64,000 nt of DNA from Euglena gracilis (GCA_039621445.1 CP154954.1:2790001-2854000); one strand, 5' to 3'. Shown: positions 1 to 63,430, counted from the stretch's first letter. Program-made: numbers and translations. The notes: a model not told the origin generated them from the sequence alone.

Positions 1-841
1 GGGCTTTCCAGCAACCGACCCATGAAATGGACCCCCGGTCTTATTTTTGGGGGGGGTTTAGTTTCTGAGACATGACAGTGTCCCGGAGGGGTTGTTTGGG
101 TCCCCAGAAGAAGCTTGCGATCCAGTTGCCACCACCCTTACAATTTTAAACCTTACATTTCCCATCCAGGTTGGTAAGTGTTTCCTGACACTTTCAGCAA
201 ATTGTGCCTATCAGCCTATTGTTCTTTTTCATCATTATTTATGTGTGTATGATTTTTTATTTGATTATTTTGTGTATGATTCTTTCGTCTGATTTGTCAA
301 CGTTCATGTCAATGAAATTCAAAGCTGTCATCCGTCGAAAAAGCCCGATTGATTTTGCTTCCGGGCCCCGATGCTAAAACGAGAGGGTTGCCACATGACT
401 GAAAGTACCATCCTGTCCATGGAGTTGTCTCCTGTCTGGAAAAGTCTTCTTCGGAGGACAGTGGCGCTGCTGTCTCTCAGGCCACAAGCCCACGACGTAC
501 CAGGAGTTTGTGAAGTCGCCCGAGAAGCGGCAGCGATATTGGGCGAGGGCATACCTCGGCTGGGACCGGTTTGCCCAGGCAAAGGTTTGTCTCCCCCCTG
601 TTTCCTTTCTTGAAAATATAGTTCCCAGCTTTTTTTTGGCCTCCTTTTGCAACATACTTGGAGGGTTGGAACCGCCGAGCAAGGTCGGGCTGGCAGTGCT
701 CGGTTGGCTGGGATGGCTGCTTGCAGGACAGGGGATGACAACTCTTTGATGACAATGACGAGACACGGGATGACAATAGCAAGTGCTTTGTGGTCCTCGG
801 ATGTGAGCCGGCTCTCCCCCTCCACCCCCCTCCCCCCACAG

Positions 842-3800
842 CCAAACGCCATACACTTCGCCCTGGCCGAGTTGGAGGCACGCGGACGGGTCCACCACAC
901 CCAACGCTGCCCCTGGACGAACGAATCGTGGCCATCCAGTCCCACCCCCCGTCCTGTGCAATTCTCACCCCCACAAAACGATCACAGAGCCCAGAAGACA
1001 CTGTCGGCCCAACATGGCAGCTTGGCCACTTTGGAAAGCTCCACAGATTTGTCACCCGGTTTGCACTCGCTGCCTCATGGACCGGGGGGGGGGGCAGATA
1101 CGTAGGTCCTTCCCCCCGCCGCCATGGGAAGTTCCCAGTGAAGGTTTGCGCCGTGCATTTTAAGCTGGCGGTTTTTTGATTTCCCAGACCCAGAACTGCA
1201 CGTGAAATTGTTTTGGTTTTATATGGTTGTGTGCTTGCTATTTTTTTTGTGCTTATCGACGGCCATTGAAGTTGAAGCAGAAGCGAACGAACCTGTTCGG
1301 TGACCACTTCCCTGGGGGGGGGGGTGAGCAAACCATGGCTGCCAGCCCCGGAACGGACACACGGACCGGCTCACTCTCCCGCCGGCCGCCGTGGCGCGGC
1401 AGCGGTGGCGCTGTGCTCACGCAGAACGTGGACGGGCTGCACACGGCGGCGGGCAGCCGGGCCGTCACGGAGCTGCACGGCAACGCCCGCTCCGTAGTCT
1501 GCCTCCAGGTCCCTTGCCCCATCCCTCACCGCTGTGATGGGGGGCCAGGACGTCTTAGCAGGACCTTTAAGCTGTAGGAACCCATCCCCCCCGGGGGGGG
1601 GGTGGCTTTTCCAGCCAGCCCATATTTTCCAGCCTCTGAGCTGGACCCAGGGATATGAAGGCTGTCAGTATTGGGTATGGGGGGCGACCCCCCCCCCCGG
1701 GCGGGCGGTGAGGTGGGGGTGTAAGGGGTACCTGGCCATACAGCAAACTGGGCCAGAAGCGAAGTTAGCGCCGGCCATGAACAGAGACACAGCCACAGTG
1801 CAACTAGGGGGGCGGTAAGGTGATAGGGGGGATCTGGATCCCCCCCCATGTGTTGGAGGGGGATCTGGATCCGGACCCCCCCTCCTCGGCAGGTTCCAAA
1901 AAAAGCGTGAACTTTTTTCCAGTGCTGCCACCGGAAAATGAGCAAAAAAAACACGTTTTGCTTCACTTTTGAGCACATTGCCTACCTTTTGATGTTTTTG
2001 TGTTTTCCAAGTCAGAAGTGTTCAAATTTTTTTTAAAAAAACATTTCAAAGAAAAATCAGGGATGTCCAACAATTTTGGCCTTGTATCTGGCCCTTTGCC
2101 TGTCCACAAAACCAAAAAAATTCCGGACCCATATCAGTTTCGATGTGGGGGGGGCTACCCCCCCCAAGGCTTCCCACCAGGCTTTTGCTTAAGGGATTGC
2201 AGTACCCCCCGGGGGGGGGGCTGGACTGCAGCTAGTCCAAATTTGGCTAGTGGGTTTTCTAGCAGCCCCCCCCCCCCCGGGGGGGTCTGCTAGCAGGGCT
2301 AGCTAGTGGAAATTTTTTTTCCAGTGACCGGCGCGAAGCGCCGAAAATTTTTTTGGGACCCCCAAAAATGGCCAAAAATGCCCGTTTTTGGCCATTTTTG
2401 GGAATTTTTGGAACAAAATCAGCCAAAAACCTGTTAAAAACCTCATTTTTCCTCCAGCGCACAGCGCCGGAGGAAAATTTTTTTTTCCAGTCCGGGGGAC
2501 CCCCGGGGGACCCCCACCCCCCCCCCCCCCCCGGGGGGGAGGGGGGGTCTAGCTAGTCCACTTTTTCCAGTGTCCAGCCGATTGGCTAGCCAGTACCCCC
2601 CCCCCCCCCGGGGGTCCTTAAGCAAAAGCCTGCTTCCCACACATCCCCCAGAGGTACGCTTGAGCCCTGTGGGGGGCCTCTCAGATCTGGTTGGGTCGAG
2701 CAACGACATGAAACAGGGCAGTGTCCATGGGTTTGGTGGCAATTCGTGCCCCAAGGCAAATGCGACCGGATTGACACGAGAGGGCACCCCTTCAGGTCGA
2801 CCCTTCCACCACCCTTTGCACTTCACCCAACGCCAAATCCATCCACTGCGCCCTGACCGAATCGGAAGCACGCGAGCTCCGTCGGTGTCCAATTGCCCGA
2901 TGCCGCCGTCGGCAGCCACATTCCAAGTTGCTGCATCCCCTCCCTTGGCTGCACCCACTTATCGGGCCACAAATTGAAGGTCGCCGAAGGTCACAGGCCA
3001 CCCCAAAAAGTTTGATTTCCCCCCCAGTATAAAGCCTGAGGGTTTTGAAATCCTGTCCAAATTTGAAGCCGGGGGGCTTTTGTATTTGGGGGGGTATTTA
3101 GGCATGCCGCGATTTCCAGTGCGTATCTTCTTCCCACGGGGGGGGGGGAGTGACCTTTGGGTGATAAGGTGGGCATCACAGAGGAGGGGGACAACTGCCC
3201 GCCCCGAAGTGGTCCAGAGCTCCTGGGCACCCCAAGACCCTTCCCAAAGGATCAGGTTTTTTTCTTCGACGCTCCAGCCGAAGGAAGCTCAGGGTTCTGG
3301 CATATTTCTACCAAATAATCATCCGTGTTAGCTTTTTGGTCGATTTTCAAGGGTGAACAAATGCAGCAGGGAGCTCCCCTGGCAGCTGGAGGGGGGGGCA
3401 TTGGAGTGTTCCAAGGGGGGGGGGTGACAGGGCCACCCGGTACCACTTCTCGACGTTTTGGTCCGGCGGCCCGGGAAGCGCAGCCAAAGTGGACATCTTG
3501 CACTGGATTCGGGGAGGCTGTTGTCCTGTTTATAGGAATGGGATCGGGGTTGGGATCGGCGTGCCGAAATTGGTCAACTTCAGGGTCCAAGTTAGGCCGG
3601 AAGAAATGTCTACGTTCGAGAAAATTTTTGGAAATAAATTTTAGCAAAAAAAATTGTTCGAATTCTGCCTAAATTCCTGACTGCGTCCAAAATGCGGCCT
3701 CACTTTTCCCAACTTCCTAAAAATGGGAGCCTACCGGGAGTCAGGCCGGAACCCTGACCCCAACTTTGACTTTCCCTAAACGTGGAACTGGGTGGCCCCA

Positions 3801-6800
3801 TATGCCCTCCTCCCCCCCGGTGCACCCCCGCCCCCCCCCCCCAAAGGGCGTTAAGGTGCTTTCTGCCACAAATTCATCCGGACGGGTTGCAGCAATGCAG
3901 CAGGAATGTGGCCATCGAAGGTGGCATCGGGAGCTCGCGTGCTTCCGATTCGGCCAGGGCGAAGTGGATGGATTTGGCTTTGCGGCGGGGGTTGAAGTGC
4001 AAAGGAGGCGGGGGGTCGACCTGAAGGGGTGCCCACTGTTACGAATTGCCACCAAACCCATGGACGCCCGAGGTGACAGCTACCCAAGGGAGGCAACTTC
4101 CGGTCCTCTGATCGGGAGAAACGGCAGTGCATTTTTTCGCCAAATTCCCAAAGAAACTTTCAAAGACGTGTCCTTTCGGGGGGGGGGTGATTATTGGAAT
4201 AGGAAAACGTGTACACACAATGGCCATGCGCGTGAATGCAGCCATGCAACAAAGTGTTTTGTTGTCGACGATGGTGGGCGATGCTGGACCCTGGGCCAGG
4301 GTTGACCAGAGGTACTCGCCCCCCCCCCCCCCAGTGCGGCGCTGTTTCGCCGCGGACGGAGCTGCAGCACCGCATGGCCGCCGCCAACCCACGGTGGGTG
4401 GGCCAGGCCTTAGCTTGAGGATTGCCCCCGGAGGCGGGCGGCTGGTCTGCAACCCGTCCAAACACCGGCCGGTGGGATTTGTATTGGACCACCCCACCAC
4501 TCTGGGGCTGCAGTGAGGGTCTGCTCTTAACCCCAGCCAAAACGCCAGCTTTGGGCATTTTTGGGGGTTTCGGGAATAAAATTTGCTAAAAACACACTTG
4601 ATTTCCGCATCGGTGGCTGGAGGAGGTATTTTTTTTTTTTGCAGCCGGGCTGACACCCCGACGTGGCGGGGGAGGTTCGGGCCGAGCCAGTGGTGTTCCG
4701 AGCCCCAGCCAGGGGTCCTGGAGCAGACGCCTGGGGTGGGCCATGGGCTGCGGGACTGGGCCCAAATGCGGCCCGACGGGGACGCCGAGAGCAGCCTGGC
4801 CGAGGCCCCTGCCCCGCGGGGCAAGCGCCCTTCCCCCCTCCCCCCGCATCTGGCCGGGCGGGGGACAGGCTTAAACTCCCGGACCCTCCCCGATACCCCA
4901 GCCCATACCAGCCCACATCTAAACAATGCGCTTTGGTTTGAGGTCCCAGAACAACCCCCCAATTATGACATTCTTCCATTGAATATTTCCAGAATAGAGA
5001 ACACATGTTAAAATAAACTTACAGAAGTGAAAATAAATATGCACCTGATGACGTTCAGCTCCTCGGTTTGAGCGTCCAATACACAGTGTGTTAGGTATTC
5101 GCCGGAGGGGTTCATTACATACAGGGTGCTGCAAAACTGCCCCGGCCTCGAGTGCGGGCGCCGCGGCTGACCCCCAGCTCTTCGCCGTGCCTGACTGCAC
5201 GGCGTGTGGCGGCGTGCTGAAGCCGCACGTCGTGATGTTCGGGGAGAGCATCCCCAAACACGTTGTGCAGGCGTGGCAATGCTGGCTGTTTATAATGATA
5301 ATTATTGCATTATATTTACCTCCCCCCCCCCTTGTCTAAGCACCACCCTTGTCTAAGCACCACCCCCCCGGTTCTTACCCATCTTTTTACAGGTCATCGT
5401 CACGGGGAGGTTTATTTTGTGTGCATTTTTAAGGGAAATTTCTCAGAAATTTCGAAGTTTCTCCACCTTATGAGCCCTGATTTAGAGAGGTATTGTTTAT
5501 TTCTGCATCCAAAGGTGTGTAAGTTCCAGGGACCTCAAATTAAGGGTAATTTTGCCTTCGGCGCGAAGCGCCGGATGCAGTCAAAATTTTCCCCCTTGTC
5601 TGCACACCCCCCTGGTTCTTACCCATCTTTTGGTTCTTAGACAATGAGGTTATAAAATATGTAATTAGATATAATAATTATAATCAATAATATAATAATT
5701 ATATTATTATATTATAATAATAAAAATTAAATAGTCATATGTTATTATAAATGATTTTCTGCATTTATTGTATTTATTATATTTATACATTATATTTTGC
5801 ATAATATTTTTTATTTGATATCATCATTCGCATACTGAATCTGAAATTCATGCAAAATGTGAGTCGTTTGACAACAAGAGACAGGACGTTCTCTGGCAAA
5901 TCTTTCCAAGTCTTGTCGCCAAGAGCCGGTGTTTCTCTCAGAACTCCGACCCCATTTCGTCCCTTCGTCCCTGCCCAATCCATGACCTTTCTCTTGTAGT
6001 GCGGCTACGAGCAGTCCAGGCTGGCTCCTCCACAGCTTGCTGGCATAGGGCAGGGGGGAATCGATAACCGCAGTTTGCCGCAATTTGCCCGCTGGCCTCC
6101 GATATCAATTCCCCCTCTGACGTGGGGCGTTTCTGATGCATAGAATGCCGGTCTGTTTTGGAACAGAATACGCGGTACTCTGCCGCCCCCACAGGGTGCG
6201 TGTGGTGGTAGTGTGGCCAACTGAAAAGGCGTGTTGCTGCTTGTCCGTTGCTGGCAAGGGACCGGCATTTGCCCCAAACGGCCTCGCTGGGGGATGGCTC
6301 TCCGGTGGGGGCGGTCTGCCCCCGCTGGACCAGAGTGACTTACTCCTGGCCCTGGGCACGTCGCTGCAGGTCCCGTCCATCTTTCGGTATGCCCTCGGCC
6401 CAAAGTGTCGGGGCCCCCCTTCTTTTGTTCTTAAATAACACACTATTTTTTTGATTGGCACCTTCTCTGGTGGGCTGAAGTCAATCTGGTTCACATCTGT
6501 CCTATCCAGGGTTTTTTTTTAGTCTTGGACCACGGGGGGGGGGTAGGGTGGGTGTCCGGCCGAGCCCGGGGGGGGGGGTGAGATAATACTTTTCGGCGGT
6601 GAAATTTTTTTGAAAAGGTGCTATTTTTAGCATTTTTCGCGATTGTTTGGCCATTTTCGGGGAAAATTGAGTGGGTCCCCCGGGACCCCACCCCCCGGCC
6701 CCCCAGGGGGTGGGTGCAGGGTTCGATATAAGGAGGGCGTACATGGTTTAGGTGGGGGGGGTGTCCCCCCCACCCCCCCCCCCCCCTCCTGGCCCGCAGG

Positions 6801-7378
6801 GGGGGGCCCGCACCCCCCCCCCCCCCACCTGCAAGGGGGGTCCGGACCGACCCTCGGGGGGTACCCGGGACCCCCCCCCAAAAAGGGTCAATTTTTTCCT
6901 CCGGCGCTTTGCGCCGAAAATTTTTTGCATTTTTGGCCAATTTTTGCCCAAAAAGTGCCCAAAATGGCACTTTTGGTCGTTTTGGGGGGTCAAAATTTTT
7001 CGGCCCGGCGCTTCGCGCCGGGCCGAAAATCGGTCACCCTGACCGCGCCACTGTTTAGGTGGGGGGGGGGGGGGTGTCCCCCCCCACCCCCCCCCCACCT
7101 GAGCCCGCAGGGGGGGGTCCGGACCACCCCCCCTCCTCTCCTTATATCGAACCCTGGGTGGGTGGGGGGACCTTCCCTTCCCCCCAGGTCTTAAAAAAGC
7201 CCTGGCCCCATCTCCTGCGTATCCCCTGCCATGGCCCAGGTACATCCGCCACGCCCACGCCAACAAGGTGCCCATCGTCATCGCCAACGTTGGGCCCACG
7301 CGCGGCGACGACCTGGCCTGCCTGAAGGTGGAGGCCCGCTGCGGGGAGGTCGCCGCCCACCTGCGCTCCTGCGCGTGA
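842..7378 (+). CDS. NAD-dependent sirtuin, SIRT4/class II-like (5' end upstream of or not found in window); exons 842-898, 1413-1508, 4335-4400, 4739-4797, 5156-5270, 6000-6013, 6324-6386, 7240-7378
   Basis: Spliced translation is continuous: [202 protein letters not shown]. It contains the sirtuin motifs [12 protein letters not shown], two CxxC, LKPxVVxFGE and GTSL, plus SIRT4-type PDGD and GPTRGD. Confidence 0.95.
899..1412 (+). other. Non-conventional intron (sirtuin)
   Basis: No GT/AG. 5' ACC-CAACGCTGCC pairs with 3' GGCAGCGGTG-GCGCT in the +4/-6 register; removal joins RVHH to VLTQNVD. Confidence 0.9.
2178..2632. mobile_element. hAT-type MITE, family A (free copy inside a GT-AG intron)
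   Basis: Perfect 17-bp TIR CAGGCTTTTGCTTAAGG; perfect 8-bp TSD CTTCCCAC (2170-2177, 2633-2640). Confidence 0.95.
2723..4065. repeat. Long inverted repeat, arms about 2723-2935 and 3888-4065
   Basis: GTCCATGGGTTTGGTGGCAATTCGT...GGGCACCCCTTCAGGTCGACCC...CCGAATCGGAAGCACGCGAGCTCC in the left arm recurs reverse-complemented in the right arm, with indels. Confidence 0.85.
4401..4738 (+). other. Non-conventional intron that is a family A MITE (element 4404-4733)
   Basis: CAG at +4..+6 and CTG at -8..-6; perfect 8-bp TSD GGGTGGGC (4396-4403, 4734-4741). Ends match the 2178-2632 element at 14/17 (left) and 18/22 (right). Removal gives [22 protein letters not shown]. Confidence 0.85.
4798..5155 (+). 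other. Non-conventional intron (sirtuin)
   Basis: 5' GGC-CGAGGCC pairs perfectly (7 bp) with 3' GGCCTCG-AGTGC; Y|R...Y|R borders; frame preserved (ct|g = Leu). Confidence 0.9.
5317..5652. mobile_element. TA-flanked MITE (Tc1/mariner/pogo-like geometry)
   Basis: TACCTC(C)nTTGTCTAAGCACC ... GGTTCTTAGACAATGAGGTTA inverted ends bounded by TA. Confidence 0.55.
6014..6323 (+). other. Intermediate intron: GT start, non-conventional 3' end
   Basis: 5' GTC-CAGGCTG pairs with 3' CGGTCTG-CCCCC (CAG/CTG in the +4/-6 register); no AG at the 3' end; joins ca|g (Gln). Confidence 0.75.
6507..7204. mobile_element. hAT-type MITE, family E (hosts a nested element)
   Basis: CAGGGTTTTTTT...AAAAAAGCCCTG ends; degenerate TSD GTCCTATC/GCCCCATC (6/8); internal similarity to 48069-48378 and 20709-20948. 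Confidence 0.75.
6717..7156. mobile_element. hAT-type MITE, family C (nested in family E)
   Basis: Perfect 16-bp TIR CAGGGTTCGATATAAG; perfect TSD GGTGGGTG (6709-6716, 7157-7164). Confidence 0.95.
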
Positions 7379-8419: not shown

Positions 8420-11200
8420 TGCATTCCGCGGCGCCCAGCGGTCTGCCCATTCGCTTCTTCGTGGCGGTGACGCTGTCCCGTGGACAGGGCGGCTGTGTGC
8501 GGGGTGGGGGATGGCGGCCAAGGCAAACACATCTCGTTGTAGCACAGTTACGGCATCGGCATCTGTCATTCCACGAGTCATACATCTCATTGAGGTTTTG
8601 CAGTGGGTGCCGACCCCCTCCCCCCCCCTCCCGGTCTTAAAAAACCCCTGTTTGTGATGGTTTTCTAGATTTCTTTGATGTGAATTGGTTTCCATTTTGG
8701 ACAAACAGGGTGATAAATACGTAGCCATTTTTTTTCTGTGCAACTGAGGACTGTGACCATTTTTGAATACCTTTTTATTTTGTACCGGTGGCAAGGTTCT
8801 GTCAGCTGCTGATGGAACCCGATCAACCACCTCTTTAAGGACCCCAGGGGGATTGCTGGAGTGCTGAAAATTTGGGCTGGCTGTCCAGCCCTTCTGGCTG
8901 GCTGGGCTAGCAGCGACCCCTGGCAGGGGGGGGAGAGCTGCTGGGCCAAACAAAGTTTGGTAGGTTGACTCAGTTTTTGACAGGGATGGGATCATATCCA
9001 GGCATTTGCGTAAGGGATTGCAGTACCCCCCCGGGGGGGGTGGACAGCAACTAGTCCAAATTTGGCTAGTGGGATTTCTAGCAGACCCCCCCGGGGGGGG
9101 GGTTTGCAAGCAGGGCTAGCTAGTGGAAATTTTTTTTCCAGTGACCGGCGGCGCGAAGCGCGGAAAATTTTTTTTGGGACCCCCAAAAATGGCCAAAAAT
9201 GCCCGTTTTTGGCCATTTTTGGGAATTTTTGGAACAAAATCAGCCAAAAACCTATTAAAACCCTCATTTTTCCTCCGGCGCTGTGCGCCGGAGGAAAATT
9301 CTTTTCCAGCCCCCCCCCCCCCCCCCCCCCCCCCCGGGGGGGGAGGGGGGGTTCTAGCTAGTCCATTTTTTCCAGTGTCTAGCCGATTGGCTAGCCAGTA
9401 CCCCCCCCCCGGGTCCTTAAGCAAATGCCTGATCATATCGCGCCCCAGTATTCTGTTCTGTTATCTTTTTCTCTGCCACCATGTTGTTGGGTCGCTACTT
9501 TCCTCTTTGTCTTCCCCCCCTCCTCTGCCATCCCCCTACCAAAGCCTAATCTCTTCAAAATTGGCTTCACCTTGAATCCTTGTGGGATTCTACCTTGGCC
9601 AAAACAAAGACTATATCACAGTTCTCACATCATTGACCCTGCTCATGATCGTTCGGAAACCCGCCCATCTGAAGGCCCTGTGGTGGTGCGCTTTGGCAGG
9701 TGACTCCCTCATTGTTCCCATTTTGGAGGTCCTCGTGAAACACACACGAAACGGTCCACACTGGGAAACGATCCCCCCCCCCTTCGGAGAAACATTCACC
9801 AGAAACATCAGAAATACACGGAATCCATCCGCTGCTGTTCCTCAGGCACGAGAGCATTGGCGACCTAAAGGACCACCTCCGGCAAACCGTCCTGCCGGAG
9901 GGCAACTGGAATGTGCGACTGGTGGTGCAAGGTCCGACGGTGTTGTGTCTTCCTCTTGGCGCTCTACCATTTCCACCATACATCTCTTTAAGGACCCCGG
10001 GGGGGGGTTGCTGGGCTAGGGCTAGAAATTTGGCTGGCTAGAAATTTGGGCTGGCTAGAAATTTGGGCTGGCTAGCCCCCCCCCCCCCCCCGGGGGGGGG
10101 GGGGGGGCTGGACCCCGGCTGGACCCGAACCGGGCGAGCTGACTGATATCAGAAAACTGCCCAAAAATGTCCTGCAGAACACAGTTTTGAAAAAATGGTG
10201 CATCTGAAACCCCCCAAAAATGGCCCAAATGCCCCACAAACCACATAGTTAGCCACTTTTGAACACAGTTTTTCAAAAAATTTCGGCGCTTGCGCCGAAA
10301 ATTTTTGGGCTGGACCCCCAAAAAGGGGCTGGCTAGCTAGGGCTAGCAGCACCCCCCCCCCCCCCCCCGGGGGGGGGGGGGGTGCTGCGGCTGGGCTGGG
10401 CCCAAATCGGGGCTGGCTGCACCCCCCCCCCCCGGGGGGGTTCGCAAAACCTTAGAGAGATGTATGATTTCCACACCATTTTTTTTTTTCGCAGGGCTGC
10501 CCACCCTCCCGGAAGTTGCTCTTCCCCTCTTTGCTCGTTGACCTGTCCTCTTGGAAAGCGTCTCCTCGCCTTGCACCCACCAACCTGATATCGCAATTCC
10601 TCTTCTTTGAAAACAATAATGATTTTCTGAGGTTTAGAAATTTGAGTCTTGTCTCCAGGCTTCTGAATTTTTTTTGGATTTTTGTGTTGGTTGGTCGAAA
10701 GATGTGCACCTTTTCCCTCAGACCTGACCCCCCCCCCCCAGGAAATTGTCCCTGCTGCGAACTTGCTGACCTGTCCTCATAGGCGCAGGTCTCCTACCAG
10801 TTTCCCTGAGGGGTTCGTTCCCCTGTCTAAGGCACACCGTGCCATCGACCCTCTGTGCCAACAGCACTTTCTGGGGCAACAGGGGCTTCTCATTCATGCA
10901 TTGTGGCATTGACTCACCGTGTCATTGAACCCCCCCTGTCAACTGCACATCCGTAGAACATTTCTGTGCCTTGGACAAGGGAGGAGGAATGGGTCCACGG
11001 TGGCAGTTAGCGAGTCCCGGCGGAGAATAGTTTCGCAGGGAGCATAAAGCTTCGCCCATTTCCACCCCTCGAGCACTGCCCCATTTCAAACCCGTCCATC
11101 CTCAACAGCCGCTCTCCGCAGGCCGACAGTGCTCCGACGGCCACACCCTGCAACAGGCAGGCATCACGTACGGCGGCAAGGTGTTGGCCATCTGCTCCCC
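8420..11200 (+). CDS. Possible ubiquitin-like domain fragment (exon ending about 8465 joined to exon about 11120-11200)
   Basis: The join reads ...SGLPIRFFVA|GRQCSDGHTLQQAGITYGGKVLAICS, resembling the C-terminal half of a Ubl fold (RLIFxGxxLxDxxTLxxxGIxxG). The junction is only weakly supported and the rest of the gene is unresolved. Confidence 0.35.
8999..9431. mobile_element. hAT-type MITE, family A
   Basis: TIR CAGGCATTTGC(G/T)TAAGG; perfect TSD ATCATATC (8991-8998, 9432-9439); closely similar to 2178-2632. Confidence 0.95.
9977..10466. mobile_element. hAT-type MITE, family B
   Basis: TIR CATACATCTCT(T/C)TAAGG; perfect TSD ATTTCCAC (9969-9976, 10467-10474); GCTGG/GCTAG-rich interior. Confidence 0.92.
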
Positions 11201-14586: not shown

Positions 14587-15005
14587 ATGGCCATCGTCAT
14601 CCCAGACGAGTATGGGTACGTGGTGCTGGTGATCGGGCTCTCCTGGTCAGGCTTCCTTTTTTTGTTTTTTTTGACGAAGCTCACCCCGGGGGGGGGGGTG
14701 CTGTAGGCAGGCAGGGGGGAAGGGCATTTTCGACCTATTCGGGTTTTGGGTGGGTCGTGCTATAGCACACGCCCCGTTGCCGAAGGCACCGGGGCCTCAA
14801 AATGGCCATTTCAAGGGATAATTGGCTGGGTCAGCAGGCACCAGGGCCAGAACTGACCGGGGGGGGGGGGACTGCCCACCTGCTCATAGCACCCCCCCCA
14901 CGTTGGCAAAAACAAGCCTGGTCCTGGTTCACGAACCTGTACCTGATGACCCTCGTGATGAACGCCCGCAAGAAGTACAACGTGCCGTACCCGGCGCTGT
15001 ATGCC
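14587..15005 (+). pseudogene. Extra copy of MAPEG exons 1-2 (14587-14644, 14926-15005); could alternatively be an alternative 5' end
   Basis: MAIVIPDEYGYVVLVIGLS|WFTNLYLMTLVMNARKKYNVPYPALYA. Differs from the downstream copy by T vs M; there is no exon 3 before the next copy. Confidence 0.65.
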
Positions 15006-17866: not shown

Positions 17867-20800
17867 ATGGCCATCGTCATCCCAGACGAGTATGGGTACG
17901 TGGTGCTGGTGATCGGGCTCTCCTGGTCAGGCTTCCTTTTTTTGTTTTTTTGACGAAGCTCACCCCGGGGGGGGGGGGTGCTGTAGGCAGGCAGGGGGGA
18001 AGGGCATTTTCGACCTATTCGGGTTTTGGGTGGGTCGTGCTATAGCACACGCCCCGTTGCCGAAGGCACCGGGGCCTCAAAATGGCCATTTCAAGGGATA
18101 ATTGGCTGGGTCAGCAGGCACCAGGGCCAGAACTGACCGGGGGGGGGGTGACTGCCCACCTGCTCATAGCACCCCCCCCACGTTGGCAAAAACAAGCCTG
18201 GTCCTGGTTCATGAACCTGTACCTGATGACCCTCGTGATGAACGCCCGCAAGAAGTACAACGTGCCGTACCCGGCGCTGTATGCCGCCCACAGGCTTCTC
18301 CACAGACTGTTGTACGGATCTGCTTCATTTCACTCCAGTGGGCAGCTCTCCAGAGGTTTTCTTAAGGCCGGGTGAGGGGGTTCGCACTGAACACCTCCCC
18401 ACGCGGGGGAGGATCAGTTTGGGTGGTTTTCCTATTTATCGCAAAAAATACCGAGCAATTTTTTGCTCCTAAAGCTGATCTCCAGAAAGAAAGAAAGTGG
18501 TCATCCCGAATCCCCCCCCCCCAAGGGTTCGGGATGTCCACTTTTGTCAACTCTCCTGTAAAAAAATCTGTGCCCCGCTATCCCGAAAACGGCTAAGTCA
18601 CCACTGGTTTCGGCCGTAAATCGGCCATATTTCGGGCCAGGCGTTGCGGGGAAATCAAAATACCATTGAATAGTCATCGTAAGTGCTTCAATTTCGGACT
18701 CCAGAAGTTTTCTTTTGATTTTGCTTCATTTCTGAGTATTTTTTTTTGGAAACTTCGGTTTTTTGACCCCAAAAACGGCCCAAAATGGCCCAGCATTTGC
18801 AAGAAGGCTCTTCCCTTCTGGCACCCACCCTGGATCTCATGGGGAATGGGATGGAAGGCCCGTGCCGGGAGCAAGGACGACAAGGACCACGAGAAGTTCA
18901 ATTCTGTGCAGCGCGCACACCAGGGTCAGGGCCCACCCTGGGGAACTGCCATCGGTGCCGCCATGGACCCAACCCGCAACCTTTGCGTTCAAGTCGAAGC
19001 CTTGCTCCCGCAGCTGCTGAGCATGCTGCTGCTGGGCACATTCCAAATGTAATGCAAGTCAATCAATGTGGACCGCAGTCTCCACGATGAAGGCGGTCTC
19101 CAGACTTGAACAACAATAATTGCAACAAACAATTATGACAATATTGAAATGAAACTTCGTCTCCAGGGGGACCAGCTGAAGCCGGAGGGGACCCTCCCCC
19201 GGGGGTCCAGCCAGACAGCAACTTTTTTCCAGCCAGCACCTCCCAGCCAGGCTGCAGACCCCCCCCTGGGGGGTCCACACCCCCAACTGAAATAAAGCGC
19301 GAAGCAAAGCAAAGCAAAGCCAGCGAAGCAGAGCAAAGCAAAGCTGGGCCTGAAAATAGTTTGAAATAATGGGGGTAAATTGCCCCCAAAAACCCTCTTT
19401 TGGGTCGGGCTTGGGTTTTCCCTTTCAACTTTTGGTTAAAAATCCCAACCCAACTGAATTTGGGTTTTTTGGTCCCCGCCGGGCCCAGCTCCCAGCCGGC
19501 CGGACCCCTCCCTCTGGACCCCCATCCCCAAGTGGGGAGGGTGGGTGTCCAGCCGCACCTTTTTCCAGGAGCCTTTGAGAATAATCCCTGCTGGGGACCA
19601 AAATCAAGGATTCATTCATTCTTTTTGTCGACGTTTCTGGCCCTGTCCAAAACATTAACTTGAGTCTGTCATCTCCGAATATTTTTGCGCACCAGATGCA
19701 TGTTTTGGAGTCTGTGTCCCAAAATCAATTTTTGACACTCAGAACCAGGGTACTCCTTAAGGCGTAAACTTTTAAAGAGTTTTAATGTTTTAAGGCGTAT
19801 TCTGAGGTTTTTTTTTTAGTCATTTCTAGGTGTGTGTTTTCATGGACGTTCAAAGGGAGCCTTCCCGGGATCGAACAGGGTCAAATCAAAAAAGTTGAGG
19901 ACCCTATTCTTGACAATCTTCCAGTGATGCCAGAAATCATTTTCCCCCCATCTTACTTTTTGGTTTGCCGAGGTTTTACGGCTTCATTTTGGCTGTAATT
20001 TCGAGAACTTTTTTTTTAAAGATCTTAAGGCTTTAAAGGGATTTTTAAGTCATTTTGGCCAAGAAATTCATGGTTTTTAAAGGCGCTTTGTTATCTTATC
20101 CGTTATTTTTTTTGTGCTCCTGGTCTTCCTTGTCTCAACCCCAGGGGGATCTTCCCTTTCTGGAAACCAGCGCCGCCCTGGGCGCAACACGCTGGAGTCC
20201 TGGGGGCCCGTCCAGATCCTGATGCTGGTGGACGGGCTGCTGTTCCCCGAGGGGGCCGCTCCGCGCGCGTCCTCCCACTGCTGCTGCTGCTGTGTTGCAT
20301 GGCCGAAAGAAATGTCCATTGGTCTCCAAAACTTTGTCCAGCTGTCAACGACGGAAAATGTTTCTGAAAAAGTCAACGTTCCAAACCAAGGTCAAACGTT
20401 GTTGTCCCCATGAAAGGCACTCGTTGAGTTTCTCCTTCTGGAGAAATCTACAGAAGCTGTAAGAGTTTCTCATTTTTGTGTAGTTTCTCATTTTTGTGTT
20501 GTTTCTCTTTTTTTGTGTCGCCACATTTTCGTGTGTATGTGTGTGTGTGTGTGTGTGTTCAGTTATTTTTGCTTTATCACATGTGATGCAATGAAGCTGC
20601 CGGCGGTCCACAAGGTTGGTCCCTCCAGTGGCCCTGCCCCAAGCTTGCAGCGACGTTGGGCCTCGTGTGGGTGGCGGGGCGATTCCTCTACGGTGCAGGC
20701 TACGCGAGTAGGGGTTTTTTTATTCGTGGACCGGTGGGTGGGTTTGGCCGAGCCCCGCCGGGGGATGTCCCCCAGGGGGGAGTGGCATATGCTATTTTTT

Positions 20801-21620
20801 GAAAAATTTTCGAAAATGTGCAATTTTCGACATTTTTCGCGATTTTTGGCCATTTTCGGGGACAATTGAGTGGGTCCCCCGGGATCCCCTCTCAGGTGGT
20901 TCATGGGTGGGGGGACCCCCTCCAGGCCCCCCCCGCAACAAACCCGTGGATGCGAGCGGGGGGCCGGAGGGGCGGCGGGCGGGGGCCGGCCTCTCCGCCC
21001 TCGGGTGGCTCCCACTGGTGGTGCTCTCCCTCTACGTCGGGGCCGCTCTCGCGAAGCTGGTATGGGCAGGCTTCTTTCTACCACAGAAAACCGGTATTGG
21101 GGGAAGTTGCATTAATTTCATTAATTTTATTTTTTCATTATTTTCATTATTTTTTTCATTTTTATTTCATTAATTTCATTAATTTCATTTCTTTTAATTA
21201 ATTTAAGTTAAGACACCAAGCCCCAAGGTATGAGTATGGTCAAGGTTGAAGAAGCGTGTTGAGTACCAGAGTTTTTTTTATATTTTAAAAATGGTTCAAA
21301 AATTGAAGGGAAAGTGTGGGTGTGAGGGACGTTTCACTAGGCATTAGGCACACCAAGTCTGGGTTCGCAGTTTTTTTTTTTGCGGATGTATGTGTATGTT
21401 TGTGTGCACCAGAGGTATTATTATTAGGTTCCCTTTTCAGTGCCTTTTTCAAGCTATTTCTAAAGAGAAAAATTGGTCCCAAGCTACAGAGTTTAATACA
21501 AAAGGTGAAATATGAGGGAATTTGTTGGTTTTGAGGGTCTTACAGATGGGTCGTTTTAGCGAAGGTCCCCCAAGGGGTTCCACCCCGACACACCGCAGGT
21601 AACCAGAAGCCTGGGCGCGA
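17867..21620 (+). CDS. MAPEG family microsomal glutathione S-transferase 3-like, about 143 aa; exons 17867-17924, 18206-18285, 18870-18923, 20186-20248, 20641-20705, 20954-21063, 21619-21620
   Basis: MAIVIPDEYGYVVLVIGLSWFMNLYLMTLVMNARKKYNVPYPALYA|SKDDKDHEKFNSVQRAHQ|NTLESWGPVQILMLVDGLLFP|KLAATLGLVWVAGRFLYGAGYA|SGGPEGRRAGAGLSALGWLPLVVLSLYVGAALAKLV*. MAPEG motifs: ARKKYxVxYP, FNxxQRAHQNTLE, GRxxYxxGY. All six introns are non-conventional; the exon 3 start is uncertain by about 3 nt. Confidence 0.95.
17925..18205 (+). other. Non-conventional intron that is a family D MITE (element 17928-18200); duplicate at 14645-14925
   Basis: CAGGCTT...AAGCCTG in the +4/-6 register; TSD CTCCTGGT/GTCCTGGT (7/8); joins t|gg (Trp). 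Confidence 0.9.
18924..20185 (+). other. Non-conventional intron (MAPEG)
   Basis: GGT-CAGGGC ... GCCCTG-GGCGC; joins QRAHQ|NTLE. Confidence 0.9.
20249..20640 (+). other. Non-conventional intron (MAPEG)
   Basis: GAG-GGGGCCGCT pairs with AGTGGCCCT-GCCCC (9 bp including G:U); residual direct repeat TCCCCGAG/GCCCCAAG (6/8); joins LLFP|KLAA. Confidence 0.88.
20706..20953 (+). other. Non-conventional intron that is a family E MITE (element 20709-20948)
   Basis: TAGGGGTTTT...AAACCCGTG ends; TSD TACGCGAG/GATGCGAG (6/8). The interior (CATTTTTCGCGATT...GGCCATTTTCGGGGA.AATTGAGTGGGTCCCCCGGGA) is shared with 6507-7204. Joins GYA|SGGP. Confidence 0.88.
21064..21618 (+). other. Non-conventional intron splitting the stop codon (T|GA)
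   Basis: GGG-CAGGCTTCT ... AGAAGCCTG-GGCGC is a perfect 9-bp stem; splicing creates TGA right after AKLV. Confidence 0.85.
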
Positions 21621-24464
21621 GGCGGTGTCGCCTGCGCAGCAATGTCGCTGGCCATTGGCAGCGATTATTGATCTTTTTCTCAGCCTGAACTGCAGGCTTG
21701 CCCTGTGTTCTCGCTCCAGTTCCCGTGCTGTTCATTTCGGCGGTGGGTATCTGTGATGCCGGGTTGGCCAAAGCCCACCTGTTCGGGGCCCACCTGTTGC
21801 AAACGCGCTCAACTGTGGCCCGATAGCAGTCGCCGGTGCCTGTATGTCACTGACCGGTCCAGGCCTACTGGAGTGTCATTCTATTTACCAGACATGCCGC
21901 CCCGCCCCTCAAAGGGTTGTTTTTGCCCGGCTTTGTGTCGTTGCCCCTGATCCGCCGACTTTGGGGCGTCCATTTCTGGAGTCATTTCTAGGTCCGTTTC
22001 AACCTCAGGGCAATTCTAGTTTGGGCCTCTGCTGTGTGGGGTCAGCCTACAAACCATTCCGACCGGAATTTGAGAAATCAGACCCAAAGTTTCCAGCATC
22101 TCAGGTGGACTTTTCTCCTGGTCCATGAAGCAACACATTTAAAGTTTCAAATTTTGATTCTTGTGAGAGGGATGTTTTTGAGAGAGGGTGTGCTGGGCCC
22201 CCCAGGCAGGTCAGGTGCCGCTGGGGGGATGGCTTCTGGAGGGGGTTTTCACTTTTTCAATTTTCACTTCAATTTTTGAGGATAGCATATTCATATTTCT
22301 GTGGAAAAATATTCCCCTGGTTAAAAATTGACAATTTCTTCTGCCTTCTGATTCAGAATGTGAAAAGGCATCGCTTTACTGATTTTTTTTGTGTCAGCTG
22401 AGGTTCGAAAAAAATGTCATTTTCCCCCCGTCTGACCCAGAACCCATACAAAATTGTCTTCTGGTCTGGTACACGCTGCCCGTCTTCATACCTGTGTACT
22501 TCCTGATTTGTCTGGCGACAGTTTCCCAGGGGGCAGGTATGCTCTCATACATTTTCACACTATGTTTCACATGTAAAACATGGAAGGCGCGTCGCGGGTC
22601 GAACCTGATTTGTTTAGAAAAGAACCCAGCCCCCCCCCCCCCAATACAAACCGCCCTGAAGGTTTTTGGTTCCACTCCAGAGTTTACATGGGAACGTCTT
22701 TGGTACCAATTTGGCATCCAATCAGGTACTGGACGTCTGGTCAGTGGAGGGAGGGGCATGCGACTTTATCTAGGTCCCAGGTGCAATGCTTGTTTTCTGT
22801 CTGGTACACGCTGCTCCGTCTTCATATCTCTATGCTCGCTGATTCGTCTGGCGACAGTTTCCAGGGGGTAAGTATGCCCTCATACATTTCCACACATGTT
22901 TCACATGCAAAACATGGAAGGCGCGTCGTGGGTCGAACCTGATTTGTATAGAAAAGGACCCCAGACCCCCCAATACAAACCGCCCTCAAGGGGTGGTCCA
23001 GCTTCTTCAAAGAGCTTCAACGTCGTCACACAAAAACAAAGGAAATGGTTCCATAACACGGAACACCTGGAACACCTGGCAGTTGAAACCCATCGGTCGG
23101 CAGAGGTGGTAAACCACCGTTTTCAAAACGAAAAAAGTCGATTCATCCAGAAAAAAAAATGGGGGTCAATGATACCCATTTTGGTAACATTTTGGGGAAA
23201 AATGCACTGCCGAAGTCGGTGCGACACAAAACGCTGTTTTACAGGGACAAACCCTGGTCAGGTGAAACCTTTGAGCTGTCCCCCCTGTTCAGTAGTGTCC
23301 AGTGACTGCGCAGGTGCACATTCACCCCCTCCCCGTCCCGGCTTTTTCCTGAAGTTTTTGGACGGTAATTGTGGCTCCCGGGGGTGATTGTGGGAGCGGG
23401 TACCGTGGTCCATATGGTTAGACTGGAGGGGGTGTTCGGTGCCCTGCGTTGGAAGCAGGGCACAAAGGTGCGATGGTTTGTAATTGAGACATGCATGTGG
23501 CATGCGTTAAAAGAGTAATAGGGAGGATGTGTCGAAACCCACACCAGATGTCCGTGGGGAGGACTCGTTACACTCCTCAGGCTGCCTTCTGTTTACATTT
23601 CACACGGTGCACCTCACCCCTCCGCGACACATGCAGGAACAGCATCCCTCCAGTCGTGCACAACGTCCGCTCAGCATGCCTTCTCATATGCACCATGGCG
23701 CATCACCGTGTGGGACCTGGTTCGGGTATGCCGATTAGTATGGGGCATACGGTGTGTGTCTATTTAGTGGTCGTTGGACAAGGTGGGGGAGGTAGGAGGG
23801 GCTATCTTGCTCTCTTTTGCTGTGTGCCACTGGTTTCTAAAGCCACCGAGCAGAGCCCCGCTTCAACCCCTTTCTGCCACCAACTTTCTTCCCAGAACAA
23901 CCCTCACAAACAACATAAAACGACCCCCTCTCTGAGGACTCTCTGAGGACTAAAATGCGCAAGTGCGCACTCTTGAGGCCATTCCTTGGCTGGCTGGTGG
24001 TGATTCTGGCTGTATGGAGGGAGGAGTGCTGGGCGCACTGATGGGCTAAAAATAAGCGAAAATAAGCACAAAATATACACTCCGCACCTTCTGTTTAAGA
24101 CTGGGGCCTGCCCAGGAGGTGCCCACTACCCTCCCCCCCCGGGGGGGGTCGAAGGGATCCACGTTTTTAAGGGTCGATTCTGGGACCCAACAAAATAAAA
24201 ATGGACAAACCCCCTCCTTTGGCAGGGGATCAAAAAGCCTTTGGGCGTATCCCCGGGTGGAGGGGGTCTAGCAGGTTCCCAACCCCCCCCCCCCGGGCTC
24301 CAATGTTTAAAAACGCCTTGCCCCCCCATCCACCACAGCACCGTGCAAGCCCAAAAATATGGAATGGCCTGGTGGGAGAGAGGGAGGGGGTCGGGTCCCC
24401 ACGGACCCCATTGAGTTTTGGGGGTTCCTGTACGTGCCCCATGCCCCAAACTGCCAGAGGTTGT

Positions 24465-25326: not shown

Positions 25327-26380
25327 TCAGTTATTTTTGCTTTATCACATGTGATGCAATGAAGCTGCCGGCGGTCCACAAGGTTGGTCCCTCCAGTGGC
25401 CCTGCCCCAAGCTTGCAGCGGCGTTGGGCCGCGGTTTGGTGGCGGGGCGCGGCCTCTACGGTGCAGGCTACGCGAGTAGGGGTTTTTTTATTCGTGGACC
25501 GGTGGGTGGGTTTGGCCGAGCCCCGCCGGGGGATGTCCCCCAGGGGGGAGTGGCATATGCTATTTTTTGAAAAATTTTCGAAAATGTGCAATTTTCGACA
25601 TTTTTCGCGATTTTTGGCCATTTTCGGGGACAATTGAGTGGGTCCCCCGGGATCCCCTCTCAGGTGGTTCATGGGTGGGGGGACCCCCTCCAGGCCCCCC
25701 CCGCAACAAACCCGTGGATGCGAGCGGGGGGCCGGAGGGGCGGCGGGCGGGGGCCGGCCTCTCCGCCCTCGGGTGGCTCCCACTGGTGGTGCTCTCCCTC
25801 TACGTCGGGGCCGCTCTCGCGAAGCTGGTATGGGCAGGCTTCTTTCTACCACAGAAAACCGGTATTGGGGGAAGTTGCATTAATTTCATTAATTTTATTT
25901 TTTCATTATTTTCATTATTTTTTTCATTTTTATTTCATTAATTTCATTAATTTCATTTCTTTTAATTAATTTAAGTTAAGACACCAAGCCCCAAGGTATG
26001 AGTATGGTCAAGGTTGAAGAAGCGTGTTGAGTACCAGAGTTTTTTTTATATTTTAAAAATGGTTCAAAAATTGAAGGGAAAGTGTGGGTGTGAGGGACGT
26101 TTCACTAGGCATTAGGCACACCAAGTCTGGGTTCGCAGTTTTTTTTTTTGCGGATATGTTTGTGTGCACCAGAGGTATTATTATTAGGTTCCCTTTTCAG
26201 TGCCTTTTTCAAGCTATTTCTAAAGAGAAAAATTGGTCCCAAGCTACAGAGTTTAATACAAAAGGTGAAATATGAGGGAATTTGTTGGTTTTGAGGGTCT
26301 TACAGATGGGTCGTTTTAGCGAAGGTCCCCCAAGGGGTTCCACCCCGACACACCGCAGGTAACCAGAAGCCTGGGCGCGA
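24946..26380 (+). pseudogene. Extra copy of MAPEG exons 4-7
   Basis: Exon 4 is identical; exon 5 reads KLAAALGRGLVAGRGLYGAGYA (loses W and F); it has no private upstream exons. Confidence 0.7.
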
Positions 26381-29229
26381 GGCGGTGTCGCCTGCGCAGC
26401 AATGTCGCTGGCCATTGGCAGCGATTATTGATCTTTTTCTCAGCCTGAACTGCAGGCTTGCCCTGTGTTCTCGCTCCAGTTCCCGTGCTGTTCATTTCGG
26501 CGGTGGGTATCTGTGATGCCGGGTTGGCCAAAGCCCACCTGTTCGGGGCCCACCTGTTGCAAACGCGCTCAACTGTGGCCCGATAGCAGTCGCCGGTGCC
26601 TGTATGTCACTGACCGGTCCAGGCCTACTGGAGTGTCATTCTATTTACCAGACATGCCGCCCCGCCCCTCAAAGGGTTGTTTTTGCCCGGCTTTGTGTCG
26701 TTGCCCCTGATCCGCCGACTTTGGGGCGTCCATTTCTGGAGTCATTTCTAGGTCCGTTTCAACCTCAGGGCAATTCTAGTTTGGGCCTCTGCTGTGTGGG
26801 GTCAGCCTACAAACCATTCCGACCGGAATTTGAGAAATCAGACCCAAAGTTTCCAGCATCTCAGGTGGACTTTTCTCCTGGTCCATGAAGCAACACATTT
26901 AAAGTTTCAAATTTTGATTCTTGTGAGAGGGATGTTTTTGAGAGAGGGTGTGCTGGGCCCCCCAGGCAGGTCAGGTGCCGCTGGGGGGATGGCTTCTGGA
27001 GGGGGTTTTCACTTTTTCAATTTTCACTTCAATTTTTGAGGATAGCATATTCATATTTCTGTGGAAAAATATTCCCCTGGTTAAAAATTGACAATTTCTT
27101 CTGCCTTCTGATTCAGAATGTGAAAAGGCATCGCTTTACTGATTTTTTTTGTGTCAGCTGAGGTTCGAAAAAAATGTCATTTTCCCCCCGTCTGACCCAG
27201 AACCCATACAAAATTGTCTTCTGGTCTGGTACACGCTGCCCGTCTTCATACCTGTGTACTTCCTGATTTGTCTGGCGACAGTTTCCCAGGGGGCAGGTAT
27301 GCTCTCATACATTTTCACACTATGTTTCACATGTAAAACATGGAAGGCGCGTCGCGGGTCGAACCTGATTTGTTTAGAAAAGAACCCAGCCCCCCCCCCC
27401 CCCAATACAAACCGCCCTGAAGGTTTTTGGTTCCACTCCAGAGTTTACATGGGAACGTCTTTGGTACCAATTTGGCATCCAATCAGGTACTGGACGTCTG
27501 GTCAGTGGAGGGAGGGGCATGCGACTTTATCTAGGTCCCAGGTGCAATGCTTGTTTTCTGTCTGGTACACGCTGCTCCGTCTTCATATCTCTATGCTCGC
27601 TGATTCGTCTGGCGACAGTTTCCAGGGGGTAAGTATGCCCTCATACATTTCCACACATGTTTCACATGCAAAACATGGAAGGCGCGTCGTGGGTCGAACC
27701 TGATTTGTATAGAAAAGGACCCCAGACCCCCCAATACAAACCGCCCTCAAGGGGTGGTCCAGCTTCTTCAAAGAGCTTCAACGTCGTCACACAAAAACAA
27801 AGGAAATGGTTCCATAACACGGAACACCTGGAACACCTGGCAGTTGAAACCCATCGGTCGGCAGAGGTGGTAAACCACCGTTTTCAAAACGAAAAAAGTC
27901 GATTCATCCAGAAAAAAAAATGGGGGTCAATGATACCCATTTTGGTAACATTTTGGGGAAAAATGCACTGCCGAAGTCGGTGCGACACAAAACGCTGTTT
28001 TACAGGGACAAACCCTGGTCAGGTGAAACCTTTGAGCTGTCCCCCCTGTTCAGTAGTGTCCAGTGACTGCGCAGGTGCACATTCACCCCCTCCCCGTCCC
28101 GGCTTTTTCCTGAAGTTTTTGGACGGTAATTGTGGCTCCCGGGGGTGATTGTGGGAGCGGGTACCGTGGTCCATATGGTTAGACTGGAGGGGGTGTTCGG
28201 TGCCCTGCGTTGGAAGCAGGGCACAAAGGTGCGATGGTTTGTAATTGAGACATGCATGTGGCATGCGTTAAAAGAGTAATAGGGAGGATGTGTCGAAACC
28301 CACACCAGATGTCCGTGGGGAGGACTCGTTACACTCCTCAGGCTGCCTTCTGTTTACATTTCACACGGTGCACCTCACCCCTCCGCGACACATGCAGGAA
28401 CAGCATCCCTCCAGTCGTGCACAACGTCCGCTCAGCATGCCTTCTCATATGCACCATGGCGCATCACCGTGTGGGACCACCTGGTTCGGGTATGCCGATT
28501 AGTATGGGGCATACGGTGTGTGTCTATTTAGTGGTCGTTGGACAAGGTGGGGGAGGTAGGAGGGGCTATCTTGCTCTCTTTTGCTGTGTGCCACTGGTTT
28601 CTAAAGCCACCGAGCAGAGCCCCGCTTCAACCCCTTTCTGCCACCAACTTTCTTCCCAGAACAACCCTCACAAACAACATAAAACGACCCCCTCTCTGAG
28701 GACTCTCTGAGGACTAAAATGCGCAAGTGCGCACTCTTGAGGCCATTCCTTGGCTGGCTGGTGGTGATTCTGGCTGTATGGAGGGAGGAGTGCTGGGCGC
28801 ACTGATGGGCTAAAATAAGCGAAAATAAGCACAAAATATACACTCCGCACCTTCTGTTTAAGACTGGGGCCTGCCCAGGAGGTGCCCACTACCCTCCCCC
28901 CCCCGGGGGGGGGGTCGAAGGGATCCACGTTTTTAAGGGTCGATTCTGGGACCCAACAAAATAAAAATGGACAAACCCCCTCCTTTGGCAGGGGATCAAA
29001 AGGCCTTTGGGCGTATCCCCGGGTGGAGGGGGTCTAGCAGGTTACCCCCCCCCCCCCGGGCTCCAATGTTTAAAAACGCCTTGCCCCCCCATCCACCACA
29101 GCACCGTGCAAGCCCAAAAATATGGAATGGCCTGGTGGGAGAGAGGGAGGGGGTCGGGTCCCCACGGACCCCATTGAGTTTTGGGGGTTCCTGTACGTGC
29201 CCCATGCCCCAAACTGCCAGAGGTTGTCA

Positions 29230-36053: not shown

Positions 36054-63430
<27,377 letters not shown>

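Follow-up and report, generated by a model that had tools for sequence, protein, structure and literature searches.

In the Euglena gracilis DNA studied here, a MITE with an 8-bp duplication of its insertion site (TSD) lies in a coding exon of a SIRT4-like gene and is very probably removed from the transcript as a euglenid nonconventional intron, whereby the reading frame is restored. The gene is partly contained in a 64-kb window, i.e. the whole stretch of DNA that was analysed (G+C content of about 50–58 %). Where euglenid nonconventional introns come from is expressly posed as a question in the field. The kind of intron is known and its origin was predicted earlier; the locus documents the link between transposon and intron concretely and directly supports the as yet unproven transposon origin of the non-GT-AG introns of Euglena.

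Sirtuin motifs mark the exons of the gene on the + strand. A search with the last sirtuin exon (45 aa) retrieved a single protein at 100 % identity, P0001 (288 aa), which belongs to the SIR2 family (Pfam SIR2, E 4.1e-43) and carries the label EG_transcript_17989; labels of the EG_transcript type are in use for transcripts of Euglena gracilis Z1 in the text of PMC6366073. Mapping by tblastn and joining of the exons led to a nine-exon model (Table 1) that translates to residues 56–288 of P0001 plus the stop codon, with 232 of the 233 residues being equal, while residues 1–55 of P0001 were not found in the window by tblastn. The one mismatch concerns residue 166, which is E in P0001 but G in the window and is separated by three codons from the junction considered below. 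Apart from P0001 itself, the best 119 homologues among the matches listed are 51–57 % identical; the named ones among them derive from bacterial metagenome bins (Thermoanaerobaculia, Acidobacteria), and no other eukaryote-labelled match is listed. These bacterial-looking homologues could reflect a bacterial ancestry of the gene or merely the make-up of the database.

Within the coding sequence of this SIR2-family gene, the element 4404–4733 is located between the motifs NPRW and RPDGD, the position (NPxW to RPDGD) given in the initial annotation. It is bounded on either side by the perfect 8-bp direct repeat GGGTGGGC, the intact TSD that had been claimed there. The element begins with CAGGCCTTAGCTTGAGG and ends with GGGGTCCTGGAGCAGACGCCTG, and its termini CAGGC...GCCTG form an imperfect inverted repeat which is complementary at 14 of 19 positions (74 %; arms 4403–4421 and 4716–4734) and at 11 of 16 positions in the CAG...CTG scan described below. 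A 10-nt repeat (GGGTGGGCCA) reported by the repeat finder at a spacing of 338 spans the 8-bp GGGTGGGC; its extra CA opens the element on the left side and the downstream flank on the right side. A 10-bp duplication GGGTGGGCCA was rejected, since the element would then be devoid of inverted ends and flanks of 9 or 10 bp occurred 0 times in the CAG...CTG scan.

Table 1 Features of the sirtuin locus and related elements in the window (coordinates counted from the first base of the window)
Feature	Coordinates	Strand	Details
SIRT4-like (SIR2 family) gene, part in window	480–7378	+	9 exons, stop included
Sirtuin exons	480–584, 842–899, 1414–1508, 4335–4400, 4739–4798, 5169–5270, 6000–6013, 6324–6386, 7240–7378	+	
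TSD, left copy	4396–4403	+	GGGTGGGC, in codons for W-V-G
Nonconventional intron	4401–4738	+	GGC-CAG...CTG-GGGTG then G; 338 nt (330 + 8), phase 0, placed by the published code (PMC12501133)
MITE-like element	4404–4733	+	330 nt, diverged member of family A, CAG...CTG termini
5' terminal inverted repeat	4404–4421	+	CAGGCCTTAGCTTGAGGA; repeat finder and duplex energy
3' terminal inverted repeat	4716–4733	+	TCCTGGAGCAGACGCCTG; repeat finder and duplex energy
TSD, right copy	4734–4741	+	GGGTGGGC
Family A copy	2178–2632	+	TIR 16/16, CAGGCTTTTGCTTAAG; TSD CTTCCCAC at 2170–2177 / 2633–2640
Family A copy	8999–9431	+	TIR 15/16; TSD ATCATATC at 8991–8998 / 9432–9439
Second code-compliant nonconventional intron	6014–6323	+	GTC-CAG...CTG-CCCCC then G; flanking repeat gone
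Elements of the CAG...CTG scan	2178–2632, 4404–4733, 6717–7156, 8999–9431, 40308–40876, 48069–48378		

The 64 kb were scanned for sequences that begin with CAG and end with CTG, are flanked by a perfect 8-bp repeat and have a terminal inverted repeat (TIR) matching at 11 of 16 positions or better. Six elements were detected, versus 0 in each of 50 shuffles. Rerunning the scan at flank lengths of 5, 6, 7, 9 and 10 yielded 1, 1, 1, 0 and 0 elements, respectively, versus the six at 8 bp; the flank length is specifically 8 bp across the elements. A motif-free scan (TIR of at least 12/14 and perfect 8-bp flanks, end motif left open) returned 16 rows, 8 of which are G/C-run artefacts, and 0 in 10 shuffles. 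Among the 8 other rows, 6 start with CAGG and 7 with CA. The element 4404–4733 was not recovered by this stricter scan, its TIR being too degenerate at 11/16. Its 8-bp TSD agrees with the hAT superfamily, for which this length is typical, as it also is for a few other superfamilies. No stop-to-stop ORF longer than 363 aa is present in the 64-kb window, and no autonomous element is evident there.

Alignment with MAFFT showed the element to be colinear with the copies 2178–2632 and 8999–9431 of the repeat family termed family A at both ends and over an interior block. The semi-global score against the 2178 copy amounts to 91 (z about 17), as compared to 300 dinucleotide shuffles (mean 9.2, sd 4.8, maximum 29) and 300 random 330-mers of the window (maximum 64); the score against the 8999 copy is 81 (z 16.7). 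The assignment to family A made in the initial annotation is thus significant, though distant, with an identity of 240/327 (73 %) to the family as opposed to 403/428 (94 %) between the 2178 and 8999 copies. Judged from these alignments, the homology is real but distant. Since the identity to family A is just 73 %, the insertion would be either old or from a different subfamily; were it old, the intact 8/8 footprint would be a little unexpected. Overall, a TSD of fixed length (8/8), a degenerate TIR and two homologous copies elsewhere in the 64 kb characterize 4404–4733 as a MITE, and an intron gain at this site would follow from the insertion footprint alone. Both sister copies had been regarded as free: the 8999 copy indeed lies downstream of the sirtuin stop codon, at a distance of 1.6 kb, whereas the 2178 copy is not intergenic but resides within the GT-AG intron 1509–4334 of the same sirtuin gene.

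The presence of these copies also bears on how the 8-nt repeat arose. In PMC4770533 the 8-nt junction repeat of a newly gained nonconventional intron, in gapC of E. agilis, is interpreted as a by-product of double-strand-break repair, and the same origin, in place of transposition, could be considered for the sirtuin repeat. It is highly improbable here, as the inserted sequence possesses inverted ends and full-length homology to two copies, each with a different 8-bp repeat, and as unrelated elements, too, show a repeat length of specifically 8. A reversed direction, with the nonconventional introns existing first and the dispersed copies representing introns that spread, e.g., via excised circular RNA, would accord with the circular RNAs reported for excised nonconventional introns in PMC11282704 and with the fact that a transposase was not found in the 64-kb window. 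The fixed 8-bp duplication and inverted repeats that are long and almost perfect (16/16 in two copies) nevertheless render this direction very unlikely, and copies are also found where splicing is unneeded, e.g., inside a GT-AG intron. Duplications of fixed length together with long inverted repeats are hallmarks of transposase-mediated DNA integration. Insertion of a transposon into the sirtuin exon is the reading pursued in the following.

Across the insertion site P0001 reads NPRWVGH, i.e. V-G occurs once, and the element plus one copy of the repeat (338 nt) are absent from the protein; the evidence for this absence is one transcript-derived protein that differs by one residue near the site. 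The cDNA ...CGGTGGGTGGGCCATGGG... that had been predicted from the loss of the element and one repeat copy is matched by P0001 at the protein level. In an alignment with 8 homologues no insertion was observed at the site, which falls into a variable loop where P0001 is shorter, and not longer, than most of them. For the removal of 338 nt there are 11 equivalent placements (starts 4396–4406), 0 of which have GT/GC-AG borders. CAG at +4 to +6, CTG at −8 to −6 and a purine as the next base are combined in 1 of the 11 placements only, namely 4401–4738, where base 4739 is G.

An ordinary spliceosomal intron would have to use GT 4398 and AG 4726, the only in-frame GT-AG pair, and the mRNA would retain 9 nt of the element. 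While this pair is in frame and adds just TPG, its product NPRW-TPG-VGH, the GT-AG-only outcome named in the initial annotation as a refutation, is absent from P0001, and the site lies in a loop in which this protein has 5 residues fewer than its homologues even so; such an intron is extremely improbable. Because the organism is Euglena, the 338-nt intron is a euglenid nonconventional intron and not a spliceosomal introner.

The code 5'-N3CDG-/-CH'GN5-6|R of these introns was defined genetically by Nomura et al. 2025 (PMC12501133), whose text describes knock-ins in E. gracilis in which it suffices for removal; synthetic 50-bp introns that follow it were spliced in E. gracilis, with pairing adjacent to the motifs being needed (PMC12501133). 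Euglenid nonconventional introns are described as lacking GT-AG borders, and the machinery removing them as unknown. For the two 25-nt ends of the sirtuin intron, an interrupted duplex of about 20 bp was calculated, with −26.8 kcal/mol, as compared to a mean of −15.8 (sd 3.2, best −24.6) for 200 shuffles. In the minimum-energy fold calculated for the entire intron the terminal stem is missing, and the stability does not exceed that of shuffles (z +0.62). By the duplex calculation, pairing of the intron ends is possible.

Since one residue near the site differs (E166 versus G), P0001 may stem from another strain, allele or paralogue, possibly one without the element. The window copy would then be an allele disrupted by the insertion, with the element kept in the transcript. 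This unlikely alternative could draw on the location of the mismatch only three codons from the junction, on P0001 being the 1 Euglena-like protein among the matches listed, and on the variable presence of nonconventional introns among strains, as described for gapC of E. agilis in PMC4770533. Against it, 4404–4733 has every code element that was sufficient in the E. gracilis knock-ins reported in PMC12501133, and the other 232 compared residues are identical with the stop codon in place, so that the window copy shows no sign of decay. Splicing of this very allele is therefore still preferred and is presumed below.

The course of events would be as follows. A non-autonomous DNA transposon (MITE with CAGG... 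TIRs and 8-bp TSDs) would have inserted into a coding exon of the SIRT4-like gene and thereby duplicated GGGTGGGC. The gene would still work, its transcript being processed by the euglenid nonconventional, non-spliceosomal-type intron pathway, presumably by the published splicing machinery. This pathway would recognise the paired CAG/CTG termini of the element, with one cut 3 nt before CAG and the other 5 nt after CTG, next to a purine. In the placement 4401–4738, the motifs CAG and CTG coincide with the outermost bases of the transposon, and the spacers consist of 3 nt from the left TSD copy and 5 nt from the right one. Because these spacers sum to the length of the TSD (3 + 5 = 8), removal would comprise the element and one duplication's worth of sequence, i.e. 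338 nt, and the pre-insertion frame ...NPRW-VG-H... would be back.

That the spacers sum to the length of the duplication may well have a causal basis, and the locus thus suggests a simple explanation of why the code has spacers of 3 nt and 5 nt, lengths that would otherwise seem arbitrary. In its general form, with an even chance of being correct, the proposal reads that the nonconventional code is the anatomy of one transposon class read at the RNA level, CAG/CTG plus stem corresponding to the TIRs and the spacers summing to the 8-bp TSD. If so, any such MITE that enters an exon, in either orientation, would be born as a scar-free intron, and the families seen in the window, with at least 10 elements bearing 8-bp footprints in 64 kb, would be the ongoing source of the majority class of euglenid introns; nonconventional introns are reported to make up 71.8 % of all introns of E. 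agilis.

Overall, 8 introns of the sirtuin gene are located in the window: three with GT-AG borders (585–841, 1509–4334, 6387–7239), one with GC-AG borders (5271–5999) and four nonconventional ones. A micro-exon of 14 nt (6000–6013; coding CGYE-Q) separates the GC-AG intron from a nonconventional intron. For the nonconventional introns 900–1413, 4799–5168 and 6014–6323, no other copies were detected in the window at E up to 1e-3, and hence no tie to a family. Two of them (900–1413 and 4799–5168) break the published code; in both, ...GCTG directly abuts the exon, and a second rule may apply to them. Nested transposons are found in the last GT-AG intron of the gene, 6717–7156 (TIR 16/16, TSD GGTGGGTG) being located within 6507–7204, and together they constitute most of its 853 nt. 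The outer element (6507–7204) has the flanks GTCCTATC / GCCCCATC (6/8) and is related to 48069–48378 (71.5 % over 158 nt).

Elsewhere in the window, tandem gene copies (14587–15005 and 17867–18285) are located 3,280 bp apart, and each holds a 273-nt CAGGC...GCCTG element (14648–14920 and 17928–18200, respectively) with the flanks CTCCTGGT / GTCCTGGT (7/8). The element splits the ORF starting with the ATG at 14587; dropping the element and one repeat yields a single open frame with the predicted junction MAIVIPDEYGYVVLVIGLSW/FTNLYLMTLVMNARKKYNVPYPALYA. The unit 14645–14925 obeys the code (GGT-CAG...CTG-GTCCT then G). A downstream exon matches Pfam MAPEG with an E of 8.1e-5 and 23.2 bits at a cut-off of 23.4. 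For a transcript of this MAPEG-like gene, the protein search gave no match at E up to 10, the representative search a single irrelevant repeat protein and the PDB search nothing. A relative of the 14648 element (73–79 % identity) is found at 46960–47244; it has perfect 8-bp flanks (ACTCTGGC) and its 3' end reads ...GTCAG, not ...CTG. Perfect 8-bp flanks together with good inverted ends also characterize the elements 9977–10466, 40308–40876, 51169–51465 and 61724–62959, none of which is clearly within a coding exon. One of these has different termini (CATACATC); in another, which resembles family A (CAGGCTTGTGCTTA), the 3' end is mutated (...CATG). A second tandem duplication, recognized from paired matches at a constant spacing of about 4.77 kb, comprises about 20800–24400 and 25600–29200.

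That euglenid nonconventional introns originated from MITEs was proposed in 2014 (PMC3935182) and is still treated as a hypothesis in PMC6221363 (2018), in PMC11170887 and PMC11282704 (2024), and in the Discussion of PMC12501133 and in PMC12621601 (2025). At the sirtuin locus, one nonconventional intron displays the full anatomy of a transposon, and sister copies of it are present outside exons. The MITE-origin hypothesis therefore becomes countable genome-wide, in terms of the fraction of nonconventional introns belonging to MITE families, the lengths of junction repeats and an autonomous element with the same ends. The main texts of PMC12501133 and of the review PMC11282704 (2024) mention neither an 8-bp duplication nor the sum 3 + 5 = 8, and a literature search covering article texts retrieved no paper in which a nonconventional intron of euglenids is placed in a MITE family or in which the spacers are connected with a duplication of 8 bp. 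An 8-nt signal may already be contained in the sliding-distance distribution of Fig. 1B and SI Fig. S3 of PMC12501133.

As in the euglenid nonconventional introns described in PMC12501133 and by Milanowski et al. 2014 (PMC3935182), the sirtuin intron lacks GT/GC-AG borders, has CAG at +4 to +6 and CTG at −8 to −6, is followed by a purine in the next exon, and possesses borders rendered 'slidable' by the junction repeat; its ends may likewise be able to pair. Unlike the published ones, it can be assigned to a repeat family, the other copies of which bear 8-bp duplications of their own. The fourth intron of gapC in strain ACOI 323 of Euglena agilis (Milanowski et al. 2016, PMC4770533) is likewise nonconventional and has eight-nucleotide junction repeats, which are taken there as a sign of recent gain. 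The newness of this gapC intron was derived from strain comparison, break repair was invoked, and the account in PMC4770533 does not report a repeat family; for the sirtuin intron, in contrast, the family is established, but not a recent gain. Introner elements of Micromonas, Aureococcus and dinoflagellates, as reviewed in PMC11282704, are similarly MITE-like, with TIR and TSD, and create an intron upon insertion into an exon. They are, however, removed by the spliceosome at GT-AG-type sites that are partly built from the TSD (PMC11282704), whereas the sirtuin element has no usable GT-AG pair and conforms to the euglenid code instead. The MITE-derived introns of the tunicate Fritillaria borealis share both the transposon origin and the non-GT-AG borders, according to the same review (PMC11282704), but involve a modified U2 spliceosome and AG-AC/AG-AT borders, while the euglenid rule is one of paired internal motifs at fixed offsets.
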